Positions 10,206-64,000 of a stretch of DNA of 64,000 nucleotides are shown in pieces (position 1 is the first letter of the stretch; every line of letters starts with the position of its first letter). The notes beneath the pieces were generated by a model. The model ran no database searches, had not been told where the DNA came from, and worked only from the letters and a program-made list of their open reading frames with translations. The stretch covers positions 60,934 through 124,933 of IMG/VR virus record IMGVR_UViG_3300027205_000173; one strand, given 5' to 3'. Source of the stretch: a virus. Lineage: Duplodnaviria > Caudoviricetes. A program made the translations under genes and the position numbers.

Positions 10206-10278
10206 TGGAGAGTAGTTCAGTTGGCAGAACAGCGGACTGTTAATCCGCGCGTCGCAGGTTCGACCCCTGCCTCTCCAG
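10206..10278 (+). tRNA. trnN: tRNA-Asn(GTT)
   Basis: TGGAGAG/CTCTCCA acceptor stem, GTTC/GAAC D-stem, GCGGA-CTGTTAA-TCCGC anticodon arm, GCAGG-TTCGACC-CCTGC T arm; CCA not encoded in register. Confidence 0.95.
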
Positions 10279-10307
10279 CCCAAAAAAAAAACAATGGAGG
10301 AATACTC

Positions 10308-39677: not shown

Positions 39678-46325
<6,648 letters not shown>

Positions 46326-46362: not shown

Positions 46363-47844
46363 ATGACCCTGATTGATACTGGTGGGAAAAAACCAGATAC
46401 GCCGACAATTGGTACTGCTTCACATTCTGGAAGCGTATTAACTATTAGCGTACCCTTTACTGCCCCAACATATGCGGGCAAGGGGACCATCTCTTCATAT
46501 ACGGTCACTTCTTCTGGGGGACATACTGGCAGTGGGGCATCTAGCCCTATATCTGTCAGTGGTCTGACTTCAGGAACCGCGTATACGTTCACAGTTATAG
46601 CAACAACCAATACTGGAGTTGTATCAGACTCTTCTAGTGCATCTAACTCGGTGACGGCTCTAACAACCCCAGCAAACGTAACTGGATTAACGACATCACG
46701 GCCATCGTCTGGCAATATTGGGGTTAGTTGGACTGCAGTGAGTGCTGACAATGCTGGTCGTGGTGGTGCTGCGAGCGTAACTTACAGTGTTTATTATGGG
46801 ACTACCTCAAGCCCAACGACGTTGTACACGACGACAGCCTCCACTTCTACCACTATCCCCCTTACCGCTGGAACTTCATATTGGTTCAAGGTAGTAACAA
46901 ATAACTCGTCATTTTCTAGTGCTGGCACAACGACTGCAACTTCAACCCTCTGCCTCGCTACACCTACAAACGCAACAAACGTTGCAATCACCAATACCAA
47001 TGGAACATCGGATTCCGCCGACCAAACATCATCAGTGACAGGTCGCTTCACGGTGACATGGACTGCTGCCGCCGGAGGTGGTGAAACACCATCGTATGAC
47101 ATTTATTATGGAACAACGGCAAGCCCAACAACATTTTGGGTCAATACAGGTGGAACTACTGCAACTGTAACTGGTCTTACAACTGGAACATCATATTGGG
47201 CAAAAGTAACTACGAAAAACACTTCGTTCACTGCGAGTGGAACAGTTTCGTCAAATAGCGTTATTCCAGTCAAGCAACCAAATCAAATCACTACTGGATT
47301 CAATGCATCAGCAGATGACGCTCAAATTTTTATCACTTTAGATTCCGGTTCTAGGCTTACAACCGCCAGTCATTTTGGTGGATTTATAGGTACTGGTACA
47401 GGCTATAAAATTTACACTTCTACAAATAATGTAAACTTTACTCTTGCAATTAATGCAAACTATTCAACTTACGAACTTGACCCATTTGATGCACTTAATG
47501 GTTCAGGCCAGACAGTCACCATCACTGGCCTAACTAATGGAACCGCTTACTACATAACTATCAATAGTTATAACAACTTTTATGAACGTACTGGGTCATA
47601 CGCCAATAGCGGAGCAACCGTAACACCGGTAGCGCCACCATATTTTCCACCATTCTTCCCGCCATTTTTCCCGCCATTTTTCCCGCCATATTTCCCGCCA
47701 TATTTCCCACCATTCTTCCCGCCATTTTTCCCGCCATTTTTCCCGCCCTTCTTCCCGCCCTTCTTCCCGCCATTTTTCCCGCCATTCTTCCCGCCATTTT
47801 TCCCGCCATTCTTCCCGCCCTTCTTCCCACCTCAATTTAAATAG
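46363..47844 (+). CDS. fibronectin type III repeat protein with C-terminal (PPFF)17 tail
   Basis: FnIII motifs (SGLTSGTAYTFTV, GLTTGTSYW, GLTNGTAYY) followed by PP(F/Y)F repeats. Confidence 0.85.
   Translation: MTLIDTGGKKPDTPTIGTASHSGSVLTISVPFTAPTYAGKGTISSYTVTSSGGHTGSGASSPISVSGLTSGTAYTFTVIATTNTGVVSDSSSASNSVTALTTPANVTGLTTSRPSSGNIGVSWTAVSADNAGRGGAASVTYSVYYGTTSSPTTLYTTTASTSTTIPLTAGTSYWFKVVTNNSSFSSAGTTTATSTLCLATPTNATNVAITNTNGTSDSADQTSSVTGRFTVTWTAAAGGGETPSYDIYYGTTASPTTFWVNTGGTTATVTGLTTGTSYWAKVTTKNTSFTASGTVSSNSVIPVKQPNQITTGFNASADDAQIFITLDSGSRLTTASHFGGFIGTGTGYKIYTSTNNVNFTLAINANYSTYELDPFDALNGSGQTVTITGLTNGTAYYITINSYNNFYERTGSYANSGATVTPVAPPYFPPFFPPFFPPFFPPYFPPYFPPFFPPFFPPFFPPFFPPFFPPFFPPFFPPFFPPFFPPFFPPQFK
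47635..47838 (+). repeat. 12-nt tandem repeat x17 encoding PP(F/Y/Q)F
   Basis: CCR-CCN-TWY-TTY units; variation is almost all synonymous or F to Y. Confidence 0.95.
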
Positions 47845-47852
47845 GATAAAAT

Positions 47853-48470
47853 TTGAACTCATTAGTTGAACCCGGATATTTTGGTTTAAATAAAGATTCC
47901 ATCATTGTTATTAGAAATTTTGTTGAGCCAGAACATTTAAAGACTGTACAAAAATTCCTACCAACAATCAATGAATGGATGGACCCAGGTGAAAGTCAAT
48001 ATTCCGAAAATGGAACATGCCTCTATAATGCCGACTACTGGCGCAACAGGCAATGCGGTGGGGAAATTATTCAAAAATTAAACAGTAATATTTATAAAAT
48101 TATTGAATTTTATATTGATAAAATGCAAAAAGTGTTAACAGAAAAATTCTCTGTCCAACTATCAAGTAGGCCACCAGTTCTCATCAAATGGACGCCAGGC
48201 ACAGAGCAAAAACCGCATGCCGATAAACAATTGAACGATGGCTCACCAAACCCGTTTCCTGATTATGATTTAAATTCGCTTATTTATTACAATGACAATT
48301 TTGAGGGTGGCGAATTATATTACCCAGAACATGACATTGTTATAAAACCAGAACCAGGCTTGGCAGTTGCCCACCCAGGTGATATACATTTTCTACATGG
48401 TGTGAAACGTATTATTTCTGGCGAAAGATGGACTACGCCATCTTTTTATACAGTGAAGGAATTTATATGA
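47853..48470 (+). CDS. Fe(II)/2OG dioxygenase, prolyl-hydroxylase-like
   Basis: HAD..YYNDNFEGGELYY..HGVKRI.SGERW. Confidence 0.88.
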   Translation: MNSLVEPGYFGLNKDSIIVIRNFVEPEHLKTVQKFLPTINEWMDPGESQYSENGTCLYNADYWRNRQCGGEIIQKLNSNIYKIIEFYIDKMQKVLTEKFSVQLSSRPPVLIKWTPGTEQKPHADKQLNDGSPNPFPDYDLNSLIYYNDNFEGGELYYPEHDIVIKPEPGLAVAHPGDIHFLHGVKRIISGERWTTPSFYTVKEFI

Positions 48471-49039
48471 AATTGTTAAAACACAAAAATTTTACAATTA
48501 TTTTTGATTTTTTGACAGAACATGAAATTGCTATATTTTCAAAATACTTTTTAAATGTTAAATGGCAAGAGTCGCATGGGGATAAACATTTTTCAAATAA
48601 TATTACCTCGTCTGATATTGGAGAAATCGCGTCCAAAGTACAGGGCAGATTGAAGTCAACAATACAAAATATTTATTCATGTATTTTAAGTGACGAGACT
48701 CTTGGTACTTTTGTTAAATATCGACATGGTCACGGACTGCCTCTTCACTATGACGCAATGACAGTAGATGATATAACGGGTGAGAAAACAATAAATAAAA
48801 CATTTAGTGGATGTACGACGACTGACATGACGTCAATACTTTATTTAAAAAATGATTCCATAGGTGGACTAATAAGTTTTCCAAATTTAGATATTACCTA
48901 CTATCCGCTGAAAGGCTCCGTAATCATATTCCCATCATTCAAGGAATATGAACACGAAGTATCTCCCGTAACAAGCGGTGACAGGATTATAACTACAACT
49001 TTTTGGCATGTGTTTGATGATACGCAAAACAAAATTTAA
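48467..49039 (+). CDS. Fe(II)/2OG dioxygenase, prolyl-hydroxylase-like
   Basis: HYD..ILYL..GGLISF..HEVSPVTSGDR. Confidence 0.88.
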   Translation: MKLLKHKNFTIIFDFLTEHEIAIFSKYFLNVKWQESHGDKHFSNNITSSDIGEIASKVQGRLKSTIQNIYSCILSDETLGTFVKYRHGHGLPLHYDAMTVDDITGEKTINKTFSGCTTTDMTSILYLKNDSIGGLISFPNLDITYYPLKGSVIIFPSFKEYEHEVSPVTSGDRIITTTFWHVFDDTQNKI

Positions 49040-49571
49040 AAATATTACTATTATCAACAATTTAATTATTCCGCAAGATATTGCCAAATTGCGCACATAC
49101 ATTGATTGTTCTCCTCTTCAGAAGGAAGAAAATAATCCTAATACATTTATCAACGTACAAGATAGCGAATGCAATTCCATACTGTCAAAGGCTCAACAAT
49201 TACTTAAAAGCAATATTGAGGAAGATTTTGACACATTAGTAAGCGACGAAGGAATAGGTACGGTAGTGAAGTTCTCTATAGGTTGGGAACTTCCATATCA
49301 CTGCGACCAATGGTCAAACCTGCCCACATACGGGGGCGCTCCGAAGCGTGATATAAGTTCGATAATCTATTTGAGTGATGATTTCAAGGGTGGCGAATTA
49401 GTTTTCCCTGACCTGGGCATATTCATTCAGCCTGTGGCTGGGTCCGCAATCTATTTTGCGGGTACCGAGGAATATATGCATCAGGTAACGCCATTACTTT
49501 CCGGAACAAGATTGACATGCACTGGTTTTTGGGGTAATCTCTCGGGGTATGACGATGTTTCAATACCCTGA
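49017..49571 (+). CDS. Fe(II)/2OG dioxygenase, prolyl-hydroxylase-like
   Basis: HCD..IYLSDDFKGGELVF..HQVTPLLSGTR. Confidence 0.88.
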   Translation: MIRKTKFKNITIINNLIIPQDIAKLRTYIDCSPLQKEENNPNTFINVQDSECNSILSKAQQLLKSNIEEDFDTLVSDEGIGTVVKFSIGWELPYHCDQWSNLPTYGGAPKRDISSIIYLSDDFKGGELVFPDLGIFIQPVAGSAIYFAGTEEYMHQVTPLLSGTRLTCTGFWGNLSGYDDVSIP

Positions 49572-50316
49572 ACCGCTACCATTCCGTTTTGAAAAACATT
49601 CGGTAGGTGTCCCAGAACTAGGAATACGCCTATACAGGAGTGTTTTGCCGCCTGCGGCAATGATTCCTGAGCGCCTCGAAAAAACTTTAGCGAATAGCAG
49701 TCACCCCTATTTCCGCTGGCACGATTCACTCGTTGGAGAGGGAGTGAAGATGCCCGAGTACAGAGATTGTGTTGATTTTAAATACGACAAAAACTACGAC
49801 GATAAAACTCCACCTGAATTCAGGGACGTAATCGATGTTTACTATACGGTTGCCGATGTTCAGAATGAATGTTTACGTGATTATCAATCCGAGTACAACA
49901 TCAACATGACCTACATGGAGGCAATTAATTTTGTCAAGTATACCGCTGGTCAACATTTCAATGTCCATACTGACCATGGTTTTTCTTATGTATGCACGGT
50001 GTCATCAGTGATGTATCTCAATGACTCCTATGACGGCGGGGAGTTGTGGTTTCCAAAACTTGACATAAAAATTACGCCCGAATATGGGGATTTGGTATTT
50101 TTTCCTTCCACTTACATTTACGCACATGCTTCAATGCCTGTAACTTCGGGGGTGAAGTATTCCGCCGTAACAATGTATGACTACAATGACGATACGCATA
50201 AGTATGGTGGATTCACTCGTCAATTCGGGCAGACAAACAATCAGCCTTACGAGCCTTCAATGTCCAACTCTATTATCATTGGTCCGATTACTCCAACTGA
50301 GGGTGTCTCCATATGA
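49549..50316 (+). CDS. Fe(II)/2OG dioxygenase
   Basis: HTD..YLNDSYDGGELWF..FPS..HASMPVTSGVK. Confidence 0.88.
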   Translation: MTMFQYPEPLPFRFEKHSVGVPELGIRLYRSVLPPAAMIPERLEKTLANSSHPYFRWHDSLVGEGVKMPEYRDCVDFKYDKNYDDKTPPEFRDVIDVYYTVADVQNECLRDYQSEYNINMTYMEAINFVKYTAGQHFNVHTDHGFSYVCTVSSVMYLNDSYDGGELWFPKLDIKITPEYGDLVFFPSTYIYAHASMPVTSGVKYSAVTMYDYNDDTHKYGGFTRQFGQTNNQPYEPSMSNSIIIGPITPTEGVSI

Positions 50317-51038
50317 CTGAAATGACATTGACTAGAACGCATCAACTTTCTCCGAAAATAAAACAATCACGATTAAAGCGCGACTGGATGGACGATACGT
50401 ATAATAAACATGCTTATCGATGTTTGCCATTAAGTGCAGCAAATGTTAACGGCTGGGAAATAATCTTACAAAAAGAAATTGTTGCTATTTGGGATGGCGG
50501 AATGTCTGTCCCTAGAATTATTTCGGATGATTCATTTAATGGTAGAACTATCGCCAATTGCAACAAAATTGGGATGATTGATATCCATCTTGGATGGGCA
50601 TTCGGTACGGAGCAAGGTTTTGACACCGTTGTTACTGGTTCCCCTAATTTTTTTATTGATGGACTAGAACCACTGACCGCATTGATACCGAGTAGTTGGT
50701 GGCCTGATGAAGTGCAGATGACATGGAGATTCACTACGCCCGGCAAAGAAGTTATTTTACCCGAAGGAATGCCTTTTGCATTTTTTTATATTCAACCTTC
50801 TCATCTTCAAGAAGACGTTAATTTCAAAATGAAAAATCTTTGGGATGACAACGAACTTATTCAAAAAAGAATGTCATATAGTGATGCTAAGATGAAAAAA
50901 CAAATAGATGAGCCATGGACTTGGATGAATGGCATCCGAACTGGACTCAATGAACGTGGAGAGCAAATAGGTCCACGCCATGATAGTTTGGTGCAACTGG
51001 CTGAACCAGAAATATCCGAGGTCTATAATGTTGATTGA
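50313..51038 (+). CDS. DUF6065 family protein
   Basis: RDWMDDT..HAYRCLPLSAANVNGWEI..GSPN..MTWRFT.PG. Confidence 0.8.
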   Translation: MTEMTLTRTHQLSPKIKQSRLKRDWMDDTYNKHAYRCLPLSAANVNGWEIILQKEIVAIWDGGMSVPRIISDDSFNGRTIANCNKIGMIDIHLGWAFGTEQGFDTVVTGSPNFFIDGLEPLTALIPSSWWPDEVQMTWRFTTPGKEVILPEGMPFAFFYIQPSHLQEDVNFKMKNLWDDNELIQKRMSYSDAKMKKQIDEPWTWMNGIRTGLNERGEQIGPRHDSLVQLAEPEISEVYNVD

Positions 51039-51336
51039 TTCAATTTCTACTTTCAAAATCACTGCATTTACGCCGCTAGGTGATGAAGATTTTCATATTT
51101 CACTAATTGACAATGGTGGAGTTGTGGGCGGGAGGATATGGAATGATAAGGGGGAAATTAGTTTCACTGATTCAAGCAAAGAAAATAACTCCTTAGAGTG
51201 GAGTATTCCTATAGAAACACCCTTTGAAACAATCCTTAAATTCAATGTTTTCATATCTGTAGAGGAAAATCGAATGAGCGGACGCGTTGTTGTTGGCGAT
51301 TATGGTTCCGTGGCATTTCAAGGGTTTGGTGAATGA
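51028..51336 (+). CDS. small beta-rich hypothetical protein
   Basis: TPLG..LEW...TPF..MSG.V..G.YG...F.G; overlaps the DUF6065 stop. Confidence 0.6.
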   Translation: MLIDSISTFKITAFTPLGDEDFHISLIDNGGVVGGRIWNDKGEISFTDSSKENNSLEWSIPIETPFETILKFNVFISVEENRMSGRVVVGDYGSVAFQGFGE

Positions 51337-51337
51337 A

Positions 51338-51967
51338 ATGTCTTATGACGAAAATAACCTCTATAAAGTAGGTATGTCCTCAATCGATGGTGAGCCAGAT
51401 TTTTTGAGTCAATTTCATGGAAAAGTAACACTATTCGTCAATATTGCATCCAAATGCGGGTATCAACCAAAATGCAGTAATTTTTGGTCTTATGCCAGAA
51501 GTTTACGACAATTTAAACAACTACAAATCGTGCATGACGAATTTAAGGACCGAGGTTTCAGCGTTGTGGGTGTCCCTTGTAACCAATTTGGGAAGATGGA
51601 ACCCTGCCCCAACGATGAAATTTCATCATTCATAAAAAAATCATATGAATTTGTTAATTTCCCTATTTCTGAGAAAATTGATGTTAATGGTCCAAACGAG
51701 CATCCGCTATATTCCATCATTAAAGGAAAAGAAAAACGCAATAAATCTGATTCCATGGCAGACAATAGTGATAAAGCATTTGCAGGACGAAATGTAGAAG
51801 GTGCCGCCATGGCGCGAATCCCGAGCAATTGGGAGAAATTTATTGTTGGCCGAAGCGGTACGGTGATTGCTAGATTCAATTGGCAGGCAATGCCGCTGGA
51901 TAAGGAACCTTTAACTACGGGTGAAAGTTGGACAATCCGGGAAGCGATTGACGAAATACTTGGATAA
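51338..51967 (+). CDS. glutathione peroxidase-family protein (Cys-type, divergent active site)
   Basis: GKVTLFVNIASKCG, VGVPCNQFG, KIDVNG..HPLY, NWEKFIVGRSG. Confidence 0.85.
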   Translation: MSYDENNLYKVGMSSIDGEPDFLSQFHGKVTLFVNIASKCGYQPKCSNFWSYARSLRQFKQLQIVHDEFKDRGFSVVGVPCNQFGKMEPCPNDEISSFIKKSYEFVNFPISEKIDVNGPNEHPLYSIIKGKEKRNKSDSMADNSDKAFAGRNVEGAAMARIPSNWEKFIVGRSGTVIARFNWQAMPLDKEPLTTGESWTIREAIDEILG

Positions 51968-54375: not shown

Positions 54376-55383
54376 ATGAACGCGCGCCCAGATACGTCTG
54401 TCATTCCTCATCCAGATACACCCGTCATTGGCGATGAGCAAATACTAGAAATATCAAATTATCAAATCGAAATTCTGGGCCCGGGGATAGTGGTTTTTAG
54501 AAACGTATTACAGTTTGAACAGAAGTCAGTATTAGAATATATTGACAGTAGGGCTGAAGAGTCGCATAAAAATCGTTGGACCTATATTGTTGGGGAAGAT
54601 GGCGAGAAATATGGGATTAATGAAGATGGTTTTCGTTACCGTCCAGAGGACATCCCGGCAACGCCCGTAAGAATTCTCCGTCCGGTAGATGAAACAACTC
54701 CAGAAAATATTGCTAGTTTTTTTCACAATATGGAAGAAACTATTTATAAATGCCTGATTCGTTATATTGACATTTATCCATTGCTTGTTGGATGTGTTTG
54801 GTGGCGTAATCGTGGTCATATTCTTCGCTATATGGATGAAGGAATCCTTGGCTCGCATTGCGACAACGATACTAATTACAAGGTAACGGACGGCGTTCGC
54901 TATATGCCACGTGGACAAATGGCGGCCCGTCAAACATGTGGAGCCCTTACTTATTTGAATGATGGCGTGGATAATGAATCGCAACTAGATGGCACCAATT
55001 TTGTCGGTGGTAATTTGAGATTTTTTCATATGGGTATTGAATATAAACCACAGCGTGGTGATGTTATTATGTTTCCAACGAATTACGTTGCATCGCATGA
55101 CGTAACCAGAATGACCGCAGGAAGTAGATACACGTATCTATCGTTTTTTGGACAAGGCTCACCGGACAGCAAGGTAAATATCAATATAGTTGAACCAGAA
55201 GATAGTTTTGATTGGTGTCCTGGAATGTGGATGAATAATATTTACGATGATTATGAGCGTTATTGTAAATCTGAATTTTCAATATATTCAAAAGGCGAAG
55301 TAGAATTGGGGATTAATCCCGTATTCCAAGGTCGATGTGTTGCGCAATACGGTACGACACACGATACCGAAGTATTAACATAG
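54376..55383 (+). CDS. Fe(II)/2OG dioxygenase (WW..GH subgroup)
   Basis: WWRNRGH, HCD, YLND..GG.L.F, FPTNYVASHDV..GSRY. Confidence 0.88.
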   Translation: MNARPDTSVIPHPDTPVIGDEQILEISNYQIEILGPGIVVFRNVLQFEQKSVLEYIDSRAEESHKNRWTYIVGEDGEKYGINEDGFRYRPEDIPATPVRILRPVDETTPENIASFFHNMEETIYKCLIRYIDIYPLLVGCVWWRNRGHILRYMDEGILGSHCDNDTNYKVTDGVRYMPRGQMAARQTCGALTYLNDGVDNESQLDGTNFVGGNLRFFHMGIEYKPQRGDVIMFPTNYVASHDVTRMTAGSRYTYLSFFGQGSPDSKVNINIVEPEDSFDWCPGMWMNNIYDDYERYCKSEFSIYSKGEVELGINPVFQGRCVAQYGTTHDTEVLT

Positions 55384-55394
55384 GAATTTTCAGT

Positions 55395-56228
55395 ATGAAA
55401 AATCTAGGTAATGGAATTGTCTTATTTAATGAATCATTTAATGTAGATGGTGCCATTCTTGATTTTTTGAATTCCCTACAAGAGGTTGAGTTTAAAAATA
55501 ATTACACATACGAATTCAATGATGATAATTCTGTTAAGTGTTTGGTTAATAAAAGCGGGCACAGGTTCCGGCAAGAGGATATATCGAAGTCCTGTGTTCG
55601 GTTGAGCAACTATTACAACTACCCGAATTCTGAAGAATGCATAAATTTTTTTAATAACTGCGATTCTGCCGTTTATAAGGCGCTTCTTGAGTATTTGGAA
55701 ATTTTTCCCATGCTATTACCTTGCATATGGTGGAAGACCAAAGGACACCCAATTTTTTATCCAGAAGGCTCAGAGCAGGGCCTTCATTGTGATAATGACA
55801 TTAACTACAGTCCAGGCTTTGAACCGAGTATGCAATTGGGCTCCAGGCATGTCCTTGCTGCAATGTGTTATTTAAATGATGATTTCAGTGGTGGCGAAAT
55901 AGTTTTTCCATATGCTGGCGTTACACATTCCCCGAAAGCAGGAGATGTTCTTTTGTTTCCAGCAAACTATATTTGTGCACATTATGTTGCAACAGTTACG
56001 TCTGGAGACAGGTATGCATATCTTCAATACTTCGGACAGGGCTCCTCATCTCCCGAATATGGGATATCAGTATGTGATAACTCGCCATATATTCATAGTG
56101 GACAAGTATGGATGAATGATATTTTTTCTGATTACAAAAACCATATAGAAATGAAATATCAACCTAGTGAATCTGGTGATTTTCTTCGTCCCCTACAACG
56201 CAAATTCCATAGTTCTGAAATAAGGTGA
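55395..56228 (+). CDS. Fe(II)/2OG dioxygenase (WW..GH subgroup)
   Basis: WWKTKGH, HCD, YLNDDFSGGE, FPANY..HYV..SGDRY. Confidence 0.88.
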   Translation: MKNLGNGIVLFNESFNVDGAILDFLNSLQEVEFKNNYTYEFNDDNSVKCLVNKSGHRFRQEDISKSCVRLSNYYNYPNSEECINFFNNCDSAVYKALLEYLEIFPMLLPCIWWKTKGHPIFYPEGSEQGLHCDNDINYSPGFEPSMQLGSRHVLAAMCYLNDDFSGGEIVFPYAGVTHSPKAGDVLLFPANYICAHYVATVTSGDRYAYLQYFGQGSSSPEYGISVCDNSPYIHSGQVWMNDIFSDYKNHIEMKYQPSESGDFLRPLQRKFHSSEIR

Positions 56229-56232
56229 ATAC

Positions 56233-57120
56233 ATGGAGATAATTAACAATGATGTTGAACTAGAACATCTTGGTAGTGGTGTCTGCATATTTAGGAATGC
56301 TTTTTCTGCCAATTGGGAAGCCATATTTCAGACCGCAACAGAATTAGTAGACCTCGAACATGCCGACATGTATCAGCAGACTATTCACCCAGAAACTGGG
56401 GAAATGGCATACATTAATAAAAGCGGATATTTATTTACTGGTGAATCAATGGATGCAATGCCTCGACGCGGTTCCGTAATTCATCGTGATTCTCGTCCAC
56501 AAATTGCCAAAATGCTTCAGGATATTGAAACTATAAAAGATTCGTATTTGTTAAAATATTTTGAACGTTTTCCACTTGCGTATAATTGCATATGGTGGAA
56601 AGTCAAAGGACACCTAGTTTCATATTCGCCAGGCGTTTATCTTGGGAGTCACTCCGACATAAGTGCCGAATATGTATATGGAGTACATCAAACGTCGCAG
56701 GAGTTGGCACTCAGAAACGTTATAACATCAATCACGTATCTCAATTCATCGAATGACGAGAATTCGTTAGTGGACGGTGAATTTTCTGGCGGGGAACACA
56801 TATTTAATTATTTAGGAATAACATACTCTCCGCGTGCTGGCGACATCATGATGTTCCCATCCAATTATATGGCTGCACATGAGGTGCGTCCTATCGTATC
56901 TGGAAGACGTATCTCTTATCTTGGTTGGTATTCACAAGGGACACCCAACCAAGAGGTTGGCGAGAGCGTATGTGACCCAAAAATAAATCCAGAAGGTGCT
57001 CGAATCAGCACGAATGTATATATGCCAACGCTTCGTCATGATTATAGGGAGTTCCTGAAGTCGCGAGGGTATGACGAATCATCGGAACAATTTAATGCAA
57101 CAAGACTGGTTGGCGAATAA
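56233..57120 (+). CDS. Fe(II)/2OG dioxygenase (WW..GH subgroup)
   Basis: WWKVKGH, HSD, YLN..GGE, FPSNY..HEV..SGRR. Confidence 0.88.
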   Translation: MEIINNDVELEHLGSGVCIFRNAFSANWEAIFQTATELVDLEHADMYQQTIHPETGEMAYINKSGYLFTGESMDAMPRRGSVIHRDSRPQIAKMLQDIETIKDSYLLKYFERFPLAYNCIWWKVKGHLVSYSPGVYLGSHSDISAEYVYGVHQTSQELALRNVITSITYLNSSNDENSLVDGEFSGGEHIFNYLGITYSPRAGDIMMFPSNYMAAHEVRPIVSGRRISYLGWYSQGTPNQEVGESVCDPKINPEGARISTNVYMPTLRHDYREFLKSRGYDESSEQFNATRLVGE

Positions 57121-57914
57121 TGAAATCAACACACATAGGTATGGGTGTCGTTGTCTGTGAAGATGTTATAGATATAGACCAAGAGTTTTTGAAAAAATAC
57201 ATATCCGCACTGCGTGGTGCTAAAGAAAATACTTTTACATATATCGAAGAAGAAGGAATTACATACGCAGTCAATGCTACTGGTTTTAAGTTTAGTATTG
57301 AGGACATTTCTATTGCTCCTCAAAGATTTCTCAATACACGTTCACCTGAAGCACTAGGACAATTAGTAAATGAAGCAAATGAATTTATAAATAAATTAGA
57401 AAACGCAATTTATGACGCCCTGATTGAATATTGTCGCCATTTTCCTGATGCAGCAACGACGGCATGGTGGAGACCCCTGGGGCATCTGGCAGGATATGAA
57501 AATGGTCAAAAAATTGGTCCTCATTGCGATGACCAAGTTCCTTATGAGTGGGGTCAGAAAACGGGAAATCAAGTATCAATGCATAATAGTACGAGCATAA
57601 ACTTATATTTAAATGATTGCGTTGAATCAACCGAAGAACTTAATGAAACAAACTTCATAGGTGGAGAACTGTGCTTCCCAAATATCCCCTATAAATGGAA
57701 GCCAAAGTCCGGTTCGGTCATTGCCTATCCTTCAAATTATGTTGGAAGACATGAAGTGTTACCCGTAACCCATGGTCAGAGGTATGCCTATCTAAGCATG
57801 GCGTGTTACGGGACATCATTCACATCGGAAGAAATTGTCGGTCAAGACAATCCACATAGGATTTGGATGCCGAAACTTATTGAGGATTCACGTCGTCAGC
57901 CAACAAAACTATAG
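57120..57914 (+). CDS. Fe(II)/2OG dioxygenase (WW..GH subgroup)
   Basis: WWRPLGH, HCD, YLND..GGEL, YPSNY..HEV..GQRY. Confidence 0.88.
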   Translation: MKSTHIGMGVVVCEDVIDIDQEFLKKYISALRGAKENTFTYIEEEGITYAVNATGFKFSIEDISIAPQRFLNTRSPEALGQLVNEANEFINKLENAIYDALIEYCRHFPDAATTAWWRPLGHLAGYENGQKIGPHCDDQVPYEWGQKTGNQVSMHNSTSINLYLNDCVESTEELNETNFIGGELCFPNIPYKWKPKSGSVIAYPSNYVGRHEVLPVTHGQRYAYLSMACYGTSFTSEEIVGQDNPHRIWMPKLIEDSRRQPTKL

Positions 57915-58848
57915 GTTTTTCAGACCGATAATCAAATCCCAAATTTTGAATATATATTTCATATTCTTCTTTTGTCGGAGCCCCCCAATATCCAATAATA
58001 TCTCCATCAAGTATTTGCTTAACAATTGATGATTTATCATTTATGGATGCATTGAAATCAACGCACGGCCTATTATTTGTTAATGGTTTGGAATATATTT
58101 TTTTCCAAGAATCATCCGTTCCATCAACGATTGATTCATGTCGGCCAAATGAATACAGACAACTGTCACTGACAGAAAAAAACCTCCATCCTCGCGCACT
58201 TGCTCGCAGGGCGAGGACGTGTTCTTCTCCATAAAAAGCAATACGCGGGTCGGGCATAACTTCTTTAAAAAGGTCCAATTTTGCAAACACAAAACCCCCC
58301 GAAGTAAGATAATGCTCATACTCCCCGCCTGCCGCCATTCCACCGATTATTTCAGATTCATATAATCCATAAGGATTCCCCAACACCAATGGCGCCCCAA
58401 GCGTGTCATGTTTATGAATTTCTCCTATCTTATTTTTCGTATACCATTTTGGTCGATTGCTTATAGCGGGCTTTTCATATTTCACAGAAAGTTTGGATAT
58501 CTCGCGCAATAAATTCATATCCCAATTTTTATCAAAAATTGTATGAGCATCAATTTGCAGAGCATAATCTTGATTTTCGTGGAGCATAAATGCATTGAGT
58601 CTGCCCAAACCGAGACCAAGTGGATATTTGTAGTCAATGTTTACTTTTTTTACATTCTTGTAGGAGTCAGTATTTGAAAATTGACCATCAGTTCTTTGGT
58701 CAATTATTCCAAAATAAATACGACTAGGAAATCTTGCGTTCTCATATGCGCTCTTGACCGTCATGCAAATATCGCTTTCATCAACACCACATGTAAAAAC
58801 AAAAATTGTCCTAAGATGCTTATTTATTTCCGAAGATGCATCACTCAT
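57877..58848 (-). CDS. GT60-like glycosyltransferase (Skp1-hydroxyproline GlcNAc transferase Gnt1 family)
   Basis: TIFV..TVKSAYENARFPSRIYFGIIDQ, GLGLGR, DYALQIDAHTIFDKNWD, SGGFVF..EV.PDP..FYGEE..LALRA..GW. Confidence 0.78.
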   Translation of the reverse strand: MSDASSEINKHLRTIFVFTCGVDESDICMTVKSAYENARFPSRIYFGIIDQRTDGQFSNTDSYKNVKKVNIDYKYPLGLGLGRLNAFMLHENQDYALQIDAHTIFDKNWDMNLLREISKLSVKYEKPAISNRPKWYTKNKIGEIHKHDTLGAPLVLGNPYGLYESEIIGGMAAGGEYEHYLTSGGFVFAKLDLFKEVMPDPRIAFYGEEHVLALRASARGWRFFSVSDSCLYSFGRHESIVDGTDDSWKKIYSKPLTNNRPCVDFNASINDKSSIVKQILDGDIIGYWGAPTKEEYEIYIQNLGFDYRSEKPIVLLADDVNPQ

Positions 58849-59524
58849 AGAAAAATTCACCTGTACTTAGCGCCAATGGCGGAGAGTCTTTATGCCATAC
58901 GTTGATGACCATTACTTGACGCACGCCATTGGCCGCTGGGGTGGTTCCATGGAGGCGCCTGCCAGCATCAAAAGAGATGAGGCGATTCGGTACATATGCT
59001 AAGCGTTCCATATATTCAGGAGAAGATAACAAGGGGGCTATGTTGTCTCGTTCTAGGGCATTTTCTGGAGAACCTTTGATTTTGTTTTCATGCATTTCCA
59101 AAAATCCACCGTCACTACAGGATGTGAATCCATACCAAATTGCACCGATAACAGGAGCATTGAATGTCTTATCGCGGGCGTAGGCAAATGTATCTTCATC
59201 AACGTGAACTTTCAAATATTGACCAGGCTTGAATGTTCTGCACCAATACTCAAAACCACATATTTCAGATTCTGGGAAACCCAACAAACCAGTATCACGC
59301 CAGACGGCTTCAATTACTTGTTTTCTTAGGGTGTTGGCCGGGCTGCTCCACCATCCATCCCAGAACATATATGGGGCACTGCATGTAGATTCTCCGGAAT
59401 GAAAATAATTATTGTATTCTCCAATATTTTCCAAATCTCCCATATTTTCGGGAAAAAAATTAAAGTCATTTTTAATAGCATTAACCAAATTGGTATTTTT
59501 TATAAAATCGTCACAAACAAACAT
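58841..59524 (-). CDS. Fe(II)/2OG dioxygenase
   Basis: GFEYW, HVDED, GG.LE, PNRLISFDAG..HG..R.VMVINVW. Confidence 0.8.
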   Translation of the reverse strand: MFVCDDFIKNTNLVNAIKNDFNFFPENMGDLENIGEYNNYFHSGESTCSAPYMFWDGWWSSPANTLRKQVIEAVWRDTGLLGFPESEICGFEYWCRTFKPGQYLKVHVDEDTFAYARDKTFNAPVIGAIWYGFTSCSDGGFLEMHENKIKGSPENALERDNIAPLLSSPEYMERLAYVPNRLISFDAGRRLHGTTPAANGVRQVMVINVWHKDSPPLALSTGEFFYE

Positions 59525-62769: not shown

Positions 62770-63309
62770 ATGACAGTAAAGAACGTTCCCGCAAAAGTTC
62801 GCATTAATAATATCGACACCATTGTTGAACTTAACGCAACCGAGATACTGACCAATAAGACCCTAACTGCCCCAACTATCAATGCTGGAACAGTTAGTAA
62901 GGCTGTTCTTACTATGCCGGTAGAACAACTCACCTACTCAACGACGGCAAACCTCCCCGGCACCGCATCAGCACTAGGCGTACAAACAATTGACGTCACT
63001 ACAGCAACGGCATACTTTTTCAATCCCACAACCGGAAAAAGCGTGACATGGGTTCCAACATTCACAAACGTAGGGACACTCCTTGACGCAGACGGCAAAT
63101 CTGTTACGGTCACAATTATTGCAAAAATTGCTTCAAGTGCTGGATATTCTAGTACAATCACCCTAGCAACGAGTACTCTCGTTTGGCAAGGTGGCGTCAC
63201 TCCATCATCAGCCAACACCAGTGCCGGAATCGATGCTTACACCTATACGATAGTTAGGACTGCAGCAAGTACATATACTGTATTTGCCTCACGAACACGG
63301 TTCGCGTAA
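62770..63309 (+). CDS. fibre adaptor protein, paralogous to the C-terminus of 25983..28688
   Basis: EILTNKTLT; WQGG..PSS...IDAY.Y..V.T....YTVFAS.T.F. Confidence 0.75.
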   Translation: MTVKNVPAKVRINNIDTIVELNATEILTNKTLTAPTINAGTVSKAVLTMPVEQLTYSTTANLPGTASALGVQTIDVTTATAYFFNPTTGKSVTWVPTFTNVGTLLDADGKSVTVTIIAKIASSAGYSSTITLATSTLVWQGGVTPSSANTSAGIDAYTYTIVRTAASTYTVFASRTRFA

Positions 63310-64000
63310 TGCCTATTATCTCGTCGTTTACCGGGGTGGCAGCAAGAGGTTTTGGTTTTACTAACGGCCTACCACCGTTGCCGCCAACGGACATATCTTT
63401 TGCTACGTCGGAACTGAACGCTGTAGTTACATTTACGACGACTCCAACTTCATATCCCGTTGATATTGTTCAAGCAAAAATTATGCAAGGTGCAACACTA
63501 ATATCCGACTGGGCGACAGTGACGAGCGGCGGAAACATTTCTGCTTCAAACCTCACTCCAGCACTTTCATATACCGTCTATTTTAGAACACGTGATACTG
63601 GTGGGCAAATCAGTCAAGAAGTTAGCCAAACATTTACAACAATAGTAGAAACCCCTCCTGGAGCGCCGACTTTCTCTTTGGCGGTTGCTTCTAGTGATGC
63701 CGGAACATTCAAATTTAATATCACCTCAACTGGCGGAACTGCAGGGACGTACTCACGAATAACTCAATATAGAATTGAAACCTCCGCAGGAGCACAACTA
63801 TTAGATTGGACGACAATTTCGTCAAACTCAGGAACGGTCACTGCCTATGGTGCCGACACCTATAATGGCACTGGAGCACTCAGCCCTGCGACGACATATA
63901 GAGTTCGTTTAAAGACGGTTGCGGATACATCGGGAACAATTACGTATTCCTCTCCTGCATATCAAGAAGTGACCACTAACGGCATTGTCGCTCCCAATGC
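63309..64000 (+). CDS. FnIII-like fibre protein, 3'-truncated
   Basis: TAATG coupling; MPIISSFTGVAARGFG.., NLTPALSYTVYFR, LSPATTYRVRL; open to the window end. Confidence 0.75.
   Translation, partial: MPIISSFTGVAARGFGFTNGLPPLPPTDISFATSELNAVVTFTTTPTSYPVDIVQAKIMQGATLISDWATVTSGGNISASNLTPALSYTVYFRTRDTGGQISQEVSQTFTTIVETPPGAPTFSLAVASSDAGTFKFNITSTGGTAGTYSRITQYRIETSAGAQLLDWTTISSNSGTVTAYGADTYNGTGALSPATTYRVRLKTVADTSGTITYSSPAYQEVTTNGIVAPN

Follow-up and report, generated by a model that had tools for sequence, protein, structure and literature searches.

Why a phage protein should end in a long series of Pro-Pro-Phe-Phe units is the question raised by the stretch of DNA analysed here, which comprises 64,000 nucleotides (nt; in the following termed the window) and represents the last 64 kb of a 124.9-kb viral contig from IMG/VR that is estimated to be 84% complete. 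The protein concerned has 493 amino acids (aa) and a body of FN3-like domains, and its last 69 residues consist of 17 four-residue units plus a Lys, the gene ending with AAA TAG at 47839-47844. Judged from gene content, the linkage of this tail to genes for prolyl-hydroxylase-like 2-oxoglutarate (2OG)-Fe(II) oxygenases is near-obligate, which constitutes the strongest evidence on its role and lies outside the argument of an earlier, sequence-only reading of the window. We consider the chances slightly better than even that a fibre-associated protein presents this tail as a substrate to prolyl-hydroxylase-like enzymes encoded by the phage itself.

The array itself was located by Tandem Repeats Finder at 47638-47828 (period 12, 15.9 copies, 89% matches, no indels), and together with the open reading frame (ORF) and the column counts this bears out the unit count, the coordinates and the substitution pattern given in the sequence-only reading. 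When units 1 to 16 are compared, variation is seen in columns 3 (A/G), 6 (A/C), 9 (T/C) and 12 (T/C), all of which are third-codon positions, and otherwise in column 8 alone (T/A), which exchanges Phe for Tyr; the last unit has Gln at position 3. Third-codon columns are thus variable in 4/4 cases compared to 1/8 of the other columns (Fisher p about 0.01). Since the variation concentrates at third codon positions, selection on the tail acts on the peptide and not on the DNA, as had been proposed. It is the only array of the PP[FY]F type in the entire contig.

With regard to the remainder of the protein, PF00041 (fn3) scores 56.4 bits (cut-off 25) in two stretches, and fn3 and related Pfam matches span residues 60-290; a fourth FN3-like domain may be located at residues ~300-420, as read from the sequence pattern alone. 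The junction motif …SNSVTPVA in front of the repeat recurs in many homologues. Because the close orthologues L123-L127, which stem from five other metagenome samples, keep the same architecture, we regard the array as real, 17 being its copy number in the assembly. The tails of three of these orthologues could be read completely and comprise 10 (L123), 10 (L126) and 13 (L127) units, so that the number of units does vary among close relatives (10, 13 and 17), as anticipated in the sequence-only reading.

That reading had also suggested a motif search in viral sequences with tabulation of neighbouring genes, and this indeed revealed that the repeat recurs together with prolyl-hydroxylase-like neighbours. 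A degenerate DNA pattern covering four PPFF units matches at least 120 IMG/VR contigs, in which in-frame reading gives Pro-Pro-aromatic-Phe repeats at or near the C-terminus. The pooled unit statistics comprise 122 distinct runs with 1,735 units (median 14, range about 4 to 32 units per run). Phe occupies position 4 in 99.7% of the units, and 94% have an aromatic residue at position 3 (Phe 64%, Tyr 24%, His 4%, Trp 2%), while all four Pro codons and both Phe codons occur across the runs, which likewise argues for a constraint at the level of the peptide. The runs typically end in PPxFK followed by the stop codon (PPAFK, PPSFK, PPRFK, PPIFK, PPGFK and PPQFK).

Most of the repeat-seeded loci with enough flanking sequence carry, according to phmmer, orthologues of two of the window's oxygenases (P4H_a and P4H_d) and of its DUF6065 protein within a few kb, in varying gene order and orientation. 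Two groups can be distinguished among these orthologues, a close one (E 1e-80 to 1e-116) and a distant one (P4H_a about 1e-45; DUF6065 21-27% identical). For a reverse test, loci were seeded by homology to P4H_a or DUF6065 without any information on the repeat. A repeat gene was present in 37/46 P4H_a-seeded loci, including 21/21 of those with a length of at least 12 kb, and the nine loci without it are short (4.2-8.6 kb), most of them with little flank on at least one side; a collagen-like stretch was found in 1/21 of the P4H_a-seeded loci of at least 12 kb. DUF6065 has relatives in at least 578 viral contigs, of which the best 80 were used for counting. Among the 33 resulting loci of at least 15 kb, 29 carry the PP[FY]F repeat and the other four a six-residue variant just upstream of P4H_a, so that a repeat of either kind is present in 33/33, compared to collagen-like stretches in 3/33. 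The variant, (PPGFFA/PPAFFS)n ending in PPAFK (L236:8194-8517, L244:8088-8519, L250:2707-3138), goes with a subgroup of P4H_a that is 48-50% identical, i.e. the type of repeat and the enzyme subgroup change together. A search for relatives seeded by the tail sheath gave two loci only.

In the window, the enzyme genes follow the tail gene immediately (Table 1). P4H_a has a TTG start 8 nt past the stop of the tail gene, which is conserved in L123, L126 and L127, and four overlapping genes follow the tail gene in an operon-like layout. Residues H122-x-D124, H182 and R192 of P4H_a are invariant in 18 close and distant orthologues, which corresponds to the HxD...H iron triad and a basic 2-oxoglutarate-binding residue about ten positions past the distal His. 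The best Foldseek match of its AlphaFold model (predicted local distance difference test, pLDDT, 92.6) is the prolyl 4-hydroxylase (P4H) of the chlorovirus PBCV-1, also termed viral collagen prolyl hydroxylase or vCPH (5c5t, E 4.4e-10), followed by the Chlamydomonas P4H (2jig, second), the Bacillus anthracis P4H (3itq, 5hv0), P3H1, C-P4H-II and PHD2, with oxygenases lacking a prolyl hydroxylase title at ranks 6 and 10. According to this model, P4H_a thus resembles peptidyl-prolyl hydroxylases more closely in its fold than it does other 2OG oxygenases. For P4H_d, a phmmer search of the Protein Data Bank (PDB) gave the B. anthracis prolyl 4-hydroxylase as the best match (E 4e-8).

The DUF6065 protein has, judged from its model (pLDDT 87.8), a dUTPase-like fold: dUTPases occupy the top 13 structural matches (Z 8.8-10.6, root-mean-square deviation (rmsd) 2.4-5.1 Å over 97-126 residues), the best Z of 10.6 being reached by 3zez_A (rmsd 2.6 Å over 114 residues) and 24ok_A (rmsd 4.8 Å over 121 residues). 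Its Cys37 is invariant among the orthologues, and no solved sequence relative was found. The GT60-type gene belongs to PF11397, the family of the enzyme that adds N-acetylglucosamine (GlcNAc) to the hydroxyproline of Skp1. Homologues are rare (7/249 fetched loci, with L063, L099, L119, L122 and L075 among the carriers). The GT60-like gene follows the PPFF gene on the same strand at a distance of 0.3-0.5 kb in L063, L099 and L119, in whose stretches of 9-13 kb no oxygenase of the module was detected, and in L122 it precedes the PPFF gene by about 1 kb, again on the same strand. Taken from gene position and family membership, it provides a second, independent hint of hydroxyproline chemistry. 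Also on the minus strand of the island lie one more oxygenase gene, a GT4 gene and a weak match to a methyltransferase. Pfam and PHROGs assigned the island genes that were scanned to oxygenases, DUF6065, the glutathione peroxidase, glycosyltransferases and the methyltransferase only, with several ORFs lacking a family match.

Table 1 Features of the tail gene, the preceding fibre gene and the enzyme island (positions refer to the window).
Feature	Position	Strand	Evidence and remarks
Collagen-like (Gly-X-Thr) fibre gene, 2210 aa	39693..46325	+	Pfam Collagen E 3.7e-115
FN3 protein gene with (PP[FY]F)n tail	46363..47844	+	ORF, 493 aa; Pfam fn3 E 3.6e-15; orthologues L123-L127
Body of the 493-aa protein	46363..47634	+	Conserved N-terminal peptide …GGKKPDTPTIG… and ~4 FN3-like domains, ending …TVTPVA
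Repeat	47635..47838	+	17 x 12 nt = PPYF, PPFF x3, PPYF x2, PPFF x10, PPQF
Terminal cap PPQFK and TAG stop	47827..47844	+	PPxFK-stop is the usual ending in the repeat family
P4H_a, prolyl-hydroxylase-like 2OG-Fe(II) oxygenase	47853..48470	+	PF13640 29.6 bits (cut-off 27)
P4H_b, 2OG-Fe(II) oxygenase paralogue, overlaps neighbours	48428..49039	+	PF13640 E 5.9e-10
P4H_c, 2OG-Fe(II) oxygenase paralogue	49008..49571	+	PF13640 E 2.8e-10; in part of the related loci
P4H_d, prolyl-hydroxylase-like oxygenase	49549..50316	+	PF13640 E 4.5e-13, 50.4 bits
DUF6065 protein	50313..51038	+	PF19541 E 1.2e-40, 140 bits (cut-off 26.6)
Glutathione-peroxidase-like gene	51287..51967	+	PF00255 E 2.7e-29; orthologues in a subset of related loci
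P4H_e to P4H_h, four PF13640 2OG-Fe(II) oxygenase paralogues	54376..57914	+	Orthologues in many related loci
GT60-type glycosyltransferase-like gene	57877..58860	-	PF11397 E 1.2e-21, 78.1 bits (cut-off 21)

The carriers of the repeat differ in their architecture. The commonest ones are an FN3 body ending in …SNSVTPVA or an N-terminal domain of about 60 aa, each followed by the repeat and PPxFK-stop; others have Cys-rich tails, and in FN3 proteins of 900-1,560 aa the repeat also forms an internal linker. Among 89 repeat-bearing proteins, Pfam detected fn3 in 50, PASTA in 5, Intein_splicing in 3, and Hint_2 and Peptidase_S74 in 1 each; Ig_J_second was present as well. Hint/intein-like domains stand directly after the repeat in L008, L034, L052, L051, L068, L071 and L085, and a Peptidase_S74-like domain (...SDYRLKEN) does so in L072 and L049. 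As established for fibres of the endosialidase type, Peptidase_S74 domains are released from phage fibres by self-cleavage once these have trimerised. Since the repeat sits in front of such self-cleaving domains, this suggests that the mature products of these genes would also end in the repeat.

Many family members are small (110-160 aa), with the N-terminal part of about 60 aa and the repeated C-terminal part. In none of the 32 distinct small PPFF genes with this layout is the N-domain preceded by a start codon in the same frame. Each of them has instead a leader that begins with ATG (M...GKK...KPT[VI]..R), is set back by one base and shares a conserved CGG codon with the downstream frame (e.g. 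L212:6229-6664, L055:2977-3400, and on the minus strand L131:17814-18234 and L108:5180-5666). Skipping one base (…GCA|C|GGA…) restores a PT[VI]..GTA N-terminus as in the in-frame FN3 proteins, which looks like a candidate conserved programmed +1 ribosomal frameshift. In the frameshift-fused small protein P0055 Pfam finds no family, so that PASTA is confirmed for 5/89 repeat proteins only.

Regarding its distribution, the repeat family is essentially virus-specific. In 185,579 species-representative prokaryote genomes the pattern matches only 10 stretches, and the genuine matches are located on contigs of metagenome-assembled genomes (MAGs; L169, L171, L172/L177, L173, L174) labelled as Verrucomicrobiales, Gammaproteobacteria, Acidibacter and Cyclobacteriaceae. 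These labels represent four unrelated bacterial groups, and the phage enzyme genes stand alongside (genes for P4H_a, P4H_d or DUF6065 in the fetched stretches of 4/6 repeat-bearing MAG contigs). Mis-binning of phage contigs is the most likely explanation, so that the labels are no reliable guide to the host. Among 5.8 billion proteins, a search found 53 matches, mostly containing fn3 and none with a functional name, and ESM Atlas gave marginal FN3 and tail-tip Ig leads (score 0.90). Among cultured phages, tblastn with the 493-aa protein and with DUF6065 found nothing at the 1e-5 limit, and blastn with the region found short fibre-repeat matches only, i.e. no cultured member was identified by these searches; P4H_a matches 24-47% identical pieces in five records, namely two of the same Synechococcus phage S-SKS1 and three single-cell 'marine virus' records.

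How the tail and the enzymes might work together can be outlined as follows. During infection, P4H_a and P4H_d would hydroxylate the Pro-Pro pairs of the tail, DUF6065 would act on the tail in a further step, and in some phages the GT60-type enzyme would do likewise. The modified tail would then form an extended aromatic rod of the polyproline-II type, which is the weakest part of the proposal; with 68 residues at 3.1 Å each, it would measure about 21 nm when fully extended. Located at the distal end of the protein, such a rod might serve as an attachment, adhesion or assembly tip, and a polyproline-type tip or assembly element, as the sequence-only reading had it, is plausible in view of the fibre gene directly upstream and of the FN3, tail-tip Ig (Ig_J_second) or Peptidase_S74 domains in proteins with this repeat. 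The broader claim, that P4H-type oxygenases and DUF6065, with or without the GT60-type enzyme, form a virus-specific post-translational system that makes hydroxyproline-bearing and possibly glycosylated aromatic polyproline rods, is put forward only tentatively, and we would sooner doubt than expect it.

Several observations weigh against the tail being such a substrate. Its hydroxylation is inferred from the gene linkage and the enzyme class, and the sequence of P4H_a resembles characterised P4Hs only weakly (PDB phmmer E 0.004-0.03). To our knowledge, known P4H substrates (X-Pro-Gly, Ser-Pro, PAPK, poly-Pro) have no bulky aromatic residues beside the target Pro. The loci are from related phages and several are near-duplicates, so that the counts are not independent events but overstate their number, and the succession of fibre genes and enzyme island could partly be inherited synteny. 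Moreover, 25 repeat-bearing records have no module in the flanks, and DUF6065 is present elsewhere in only 8 of them, including the sole complete record; most of the records without DUF6065 are fragments, but it is also missing from ones estimated to be 60%, 50% and 48% complete. In the virions of PBCV-1 no hydroxyproline was detected (PMC7019647), which calls for caution in reading the linkage here. Finally, cyanophage Syn9 has a comparable dioxygenase array, yet its genome has no match to a degenerate PP[FY]F pattern of two units.

As a rival explanation, the repeat could be an unmodified structural element, i.e. a stiff Pro-rich spacer or a hydrophobic oligomerisation stalk, the proximity of the oxygenases being inherited gene order. 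The use of the repeat as a linker between FN3 arrays in the 900-1,560-aa proteins, its fibre-shaft position in front of self-cleaving Peptidase_S74 and Hint domains, the long-flank repeat loci that show no oxygenase nearby, the relatedness of all linked phages, and the position of the Syn9 array, which also follows fibre genes in a genome without the repeat, all fit this explanation. Nevertheless, we regard it as unlikely, since the linkage persists through changed gene order, orientation and distance, across different carrier proteins (FN3, small domain, Cys-rich tails) and at deep divergence (DUF6065 down to 21-27% identity), and since the variant of the repeat switches together with the P4H_a subgroup. 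In addition, collagen-like genes, another obvious fibre element, are unlinked, and GT60-like genes adjoin PPFF genes in separate loci. Alternatively, the oxygenases could have a target other than the prolines of the tail, be it its Phe/Tyr residues or terminal Lys, the collagen-like Gly-Pro-Thr fibre, proteins of the host or a small molecule. The window harbours about ten 2OG oxygenases of several sub-lineages, which is more than one tetrapeptide needs, and the 2210-aa collagen-like fibre with Pro at X positions is encoded directly upstream. A solved B. anthracis P4H entry (5v7y) is titled as modifying elongation factor Tu, and secondary-metabolite roles were proposed for the Syn9 array (Iyer et al. 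2010, PMC2938197). The rarity of collagen-like stretches in the same seeded loci in all of which a repeat is found, the nearest solved folds of P4H_a being peptidyl-prolyl hydroxylases, and the two prolines per unit in a poly-Pro-like context speak against a different target, which we consider quite improbable.

Antamanide is a fungal cyclic peptide of 9-10 residues, and the sequence-only reading had drawn a parallel to it and to cyclolinopeptide A of flax, together with the idea of a precursor of a ribosomally synthesised and post-translationally modified peptide (RiPP), from which a repeated core would be excised, and perhaps cyclised, into small Pro-Pro-Phe-Phe peptides. The shared tetrapeptide is real, as cyclolinopeptide A and cyclic peptides related to it have Pro-Pro-Phe-Phe as their core (PMC9182219, PMC9266943), and the small size of many family members, with their two-part layout, as well as the adjacent tailoring-type enzymes would suit a precursor. 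The likeness ends there, however: cyclolinopeptide A has 9-10 residues, compared to a linear tail of 68 residues on a 493-aa phage protein with no maturation machinery seen nearby. In the window as well as in the 122 runs elsewhere, the units abut without spacer, cleavage or recognition site, and the island genes scanned, several ORFs of which have no family match, revealed neither a protease nor a cyclase or transporter. Proteins with the repeat have large FN3, tail-tip Ig and fibre-chaperone domains, or are long and fibre-like with the repeat inside, its genes follow fibre genes, and the unit number varies freely between about 4 and 32. Processing of the RiPP type is therefore very improbable in our view. 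An assembly artefact, or a non-coding slippage repeat that is in frame by chance, can practically be dismissed. If a typical short read is shorter than the 204-nt short-period array, which is an assumption, errors of assembly could have altered the number of copies; that the array exists is a different matter, as independent contigs from many samples keep architecture, frame, junction and PPxFK-stop, and as the concentration of variation at third codon positions contradicts an artefact.

The reading of the tail as an enzyme substrate can further be compared with known systems. The closest precedent is PBCV-1, which like the phage of the window encodes a small P4H-type 2OG oxygenase and Pro-rich repeats of its own. 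In structure, the P4H_a model is matched best by its vCPH, yet the identity in the Foldseek alignment is only ~14%. The PBCV-1 repeats are reportedly of the PAPK type, as opposed to Pro-Pro-aromatic-Phe here. In contrast to our phage, PBCV-1 infects a eukaryotic alga, it has one enzyme instead of a trio with a second P4H and DUF6065, and a tight adjacency of enzyme and repeat genes is not described there. In vitro, the small PBCV-1 P4H hydroxylates Pro-containing peptides, according to the account of Eriksson et al. 1999 that is given in PMC7019647, and the biological role of the chlorovirus P4H is still unknown (PMC7019647). A genomic analogy is offered by the Syn9 array gp41-gp54, which combines tandem dioxygenases with a dUTPase-fold protein that has a conserved cysteine (Iyer et al. 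2010, PMC2938197). As in the window, many tandem 2OG-Fe(II) dioxygenases directly follow tail-fibre genes, and the dUTPase-fold protein resembles DUF6065 with its invariant C37. At the sequence level this resemblance is weak (gp43 versus the DUF6065 profile, hhalign probability 15.5%, E 0.0017), and the Syn9 genome has no PF19541 match at E ≤ 1. Unlike the window, Syn9 has tryptophan halogenases, its genome has no PP[FY]F repeat match, and the authors proposed the synthesis of secondary metabolites and not the modification of virion proteins.

Among proteins that are substrates of P4H-type enzymes, plant extensins share with the tail the tandem Pro-rich repeats with Tyr, and the enzymes recognise the extended polyproline-II conformation; the corresponding algal enzyme Cr-P4H (2jig/3gze) is the second-best structural match of P4H_a. 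In plants, O-glycosylation of hydroxyproline follows the action of P4H, and the window contains the GT60-type gene. In contrast, the extensin motif is Ser-Pro(3-5), whereas each Pro-Pro of the tail is followed by two aromatic residues, and extensins involve the secretory pathway, which the phage tail does not, hydroxyproline or glycan in the tail being predicted only. An extensin-type glycoprotein was rejected as a candidate, since the tail has no Ser and Pro-Pro pairs only. The Skp1 pathway of Dictyostelium and Toxoplasma, in which P4H1/PhyA is followed by Gnt1 (GT60, PF11397), is similar to the window in combining a P4H-type oxygenase with a PF11397 GlcNAc-transferase-like gene and in being cytoplasmic; it differs from the tail in that a single Pro is modified and a long repeat is missing. 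The acceptor of the phage GT60-type enzyme could also be the Thr of the Gly-X-Thr fibre. Phages and bacteria also have collagen-like fibre proteins, in which Pro-rich sequence is likewise repeated in tandem, and P4Hs classically act on collagen; these proteins, however, have Gly at every third residue, compared to none and a period of four in the tail, and collagen-like genes are unlinked to P4H_a. A collagen triple helix was rejected for the 68-residue tail on the grounds of its period of four residues and its lack of Gly.

Lists of phage auxiliary genes often include P4H-like 2OG-Fe(II) oxygenases, for most of which no substrate is known. In the present case, a candidate substrate that is simple and made by the ribosome is encoded beside the enzymes, and this pairing recurs in dozens of environmental phage loci, which renders the substrate question directly testable. 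If the broader claim of a virus-specific modification system is true, some of the many 2OG-Fe(II) oxygenase genes of environmental phages that lack an explanation would gain their first natural substrate, and the tail would represent a new kind of fibrous protein motif. No description of a Pro-Pro-aromatic-Phe repeat was found in the literature searched; the repeat, with up to 32 units and its PPxFK cap, could thus be a new extended aromatic polyproline element of phage fibres, of possible interest for host recognition and for protein materials.

The genomic setting is consistent with a fibre-associated role of the protein. The contig, which has a G+C content of ~44%, derives from a contractile-tailed phage; its tail sheath is ~35% identical to sheaths of Arthrobacter, Gordonia and Brevibacterium myophages. 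The tail gene begins 38 nt after the 3' end of the collagen-like fibre gene, and several further fibre-like genes are located upstream. The fibre ends in the motif ...L[IV]K[RL]A.NTWV..GDLSA-stop (window 46200-46325), and the same C-terminal motif ends the gene just upstream of the repeat gene in 63/95 other distinct loci with enough upstream sequence; from this we conclude that the repeat protein is, as far as sequence can tell, a regular downstream partner of one fibre family. Gene context and domain types common in tail decoration make a fibre-associated, putative virion protein the best reading of the 493-aa protein.

In the 2210-aa fibre itself, Gly-X-Thr forms three long runs, and a segment of 62 aa recurs that is encoded by a 186-nt repeat (44202-44829, 3.4 copies). 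Promoter and terminator scans remained at chance level. Another FN3-like ORF at 63309-63998, which is cut by the contig end, shows no close paralogy to the 493-aa protein. One tRNA gene, for tRNA-Asn (GTT), is located at 10206-10280.

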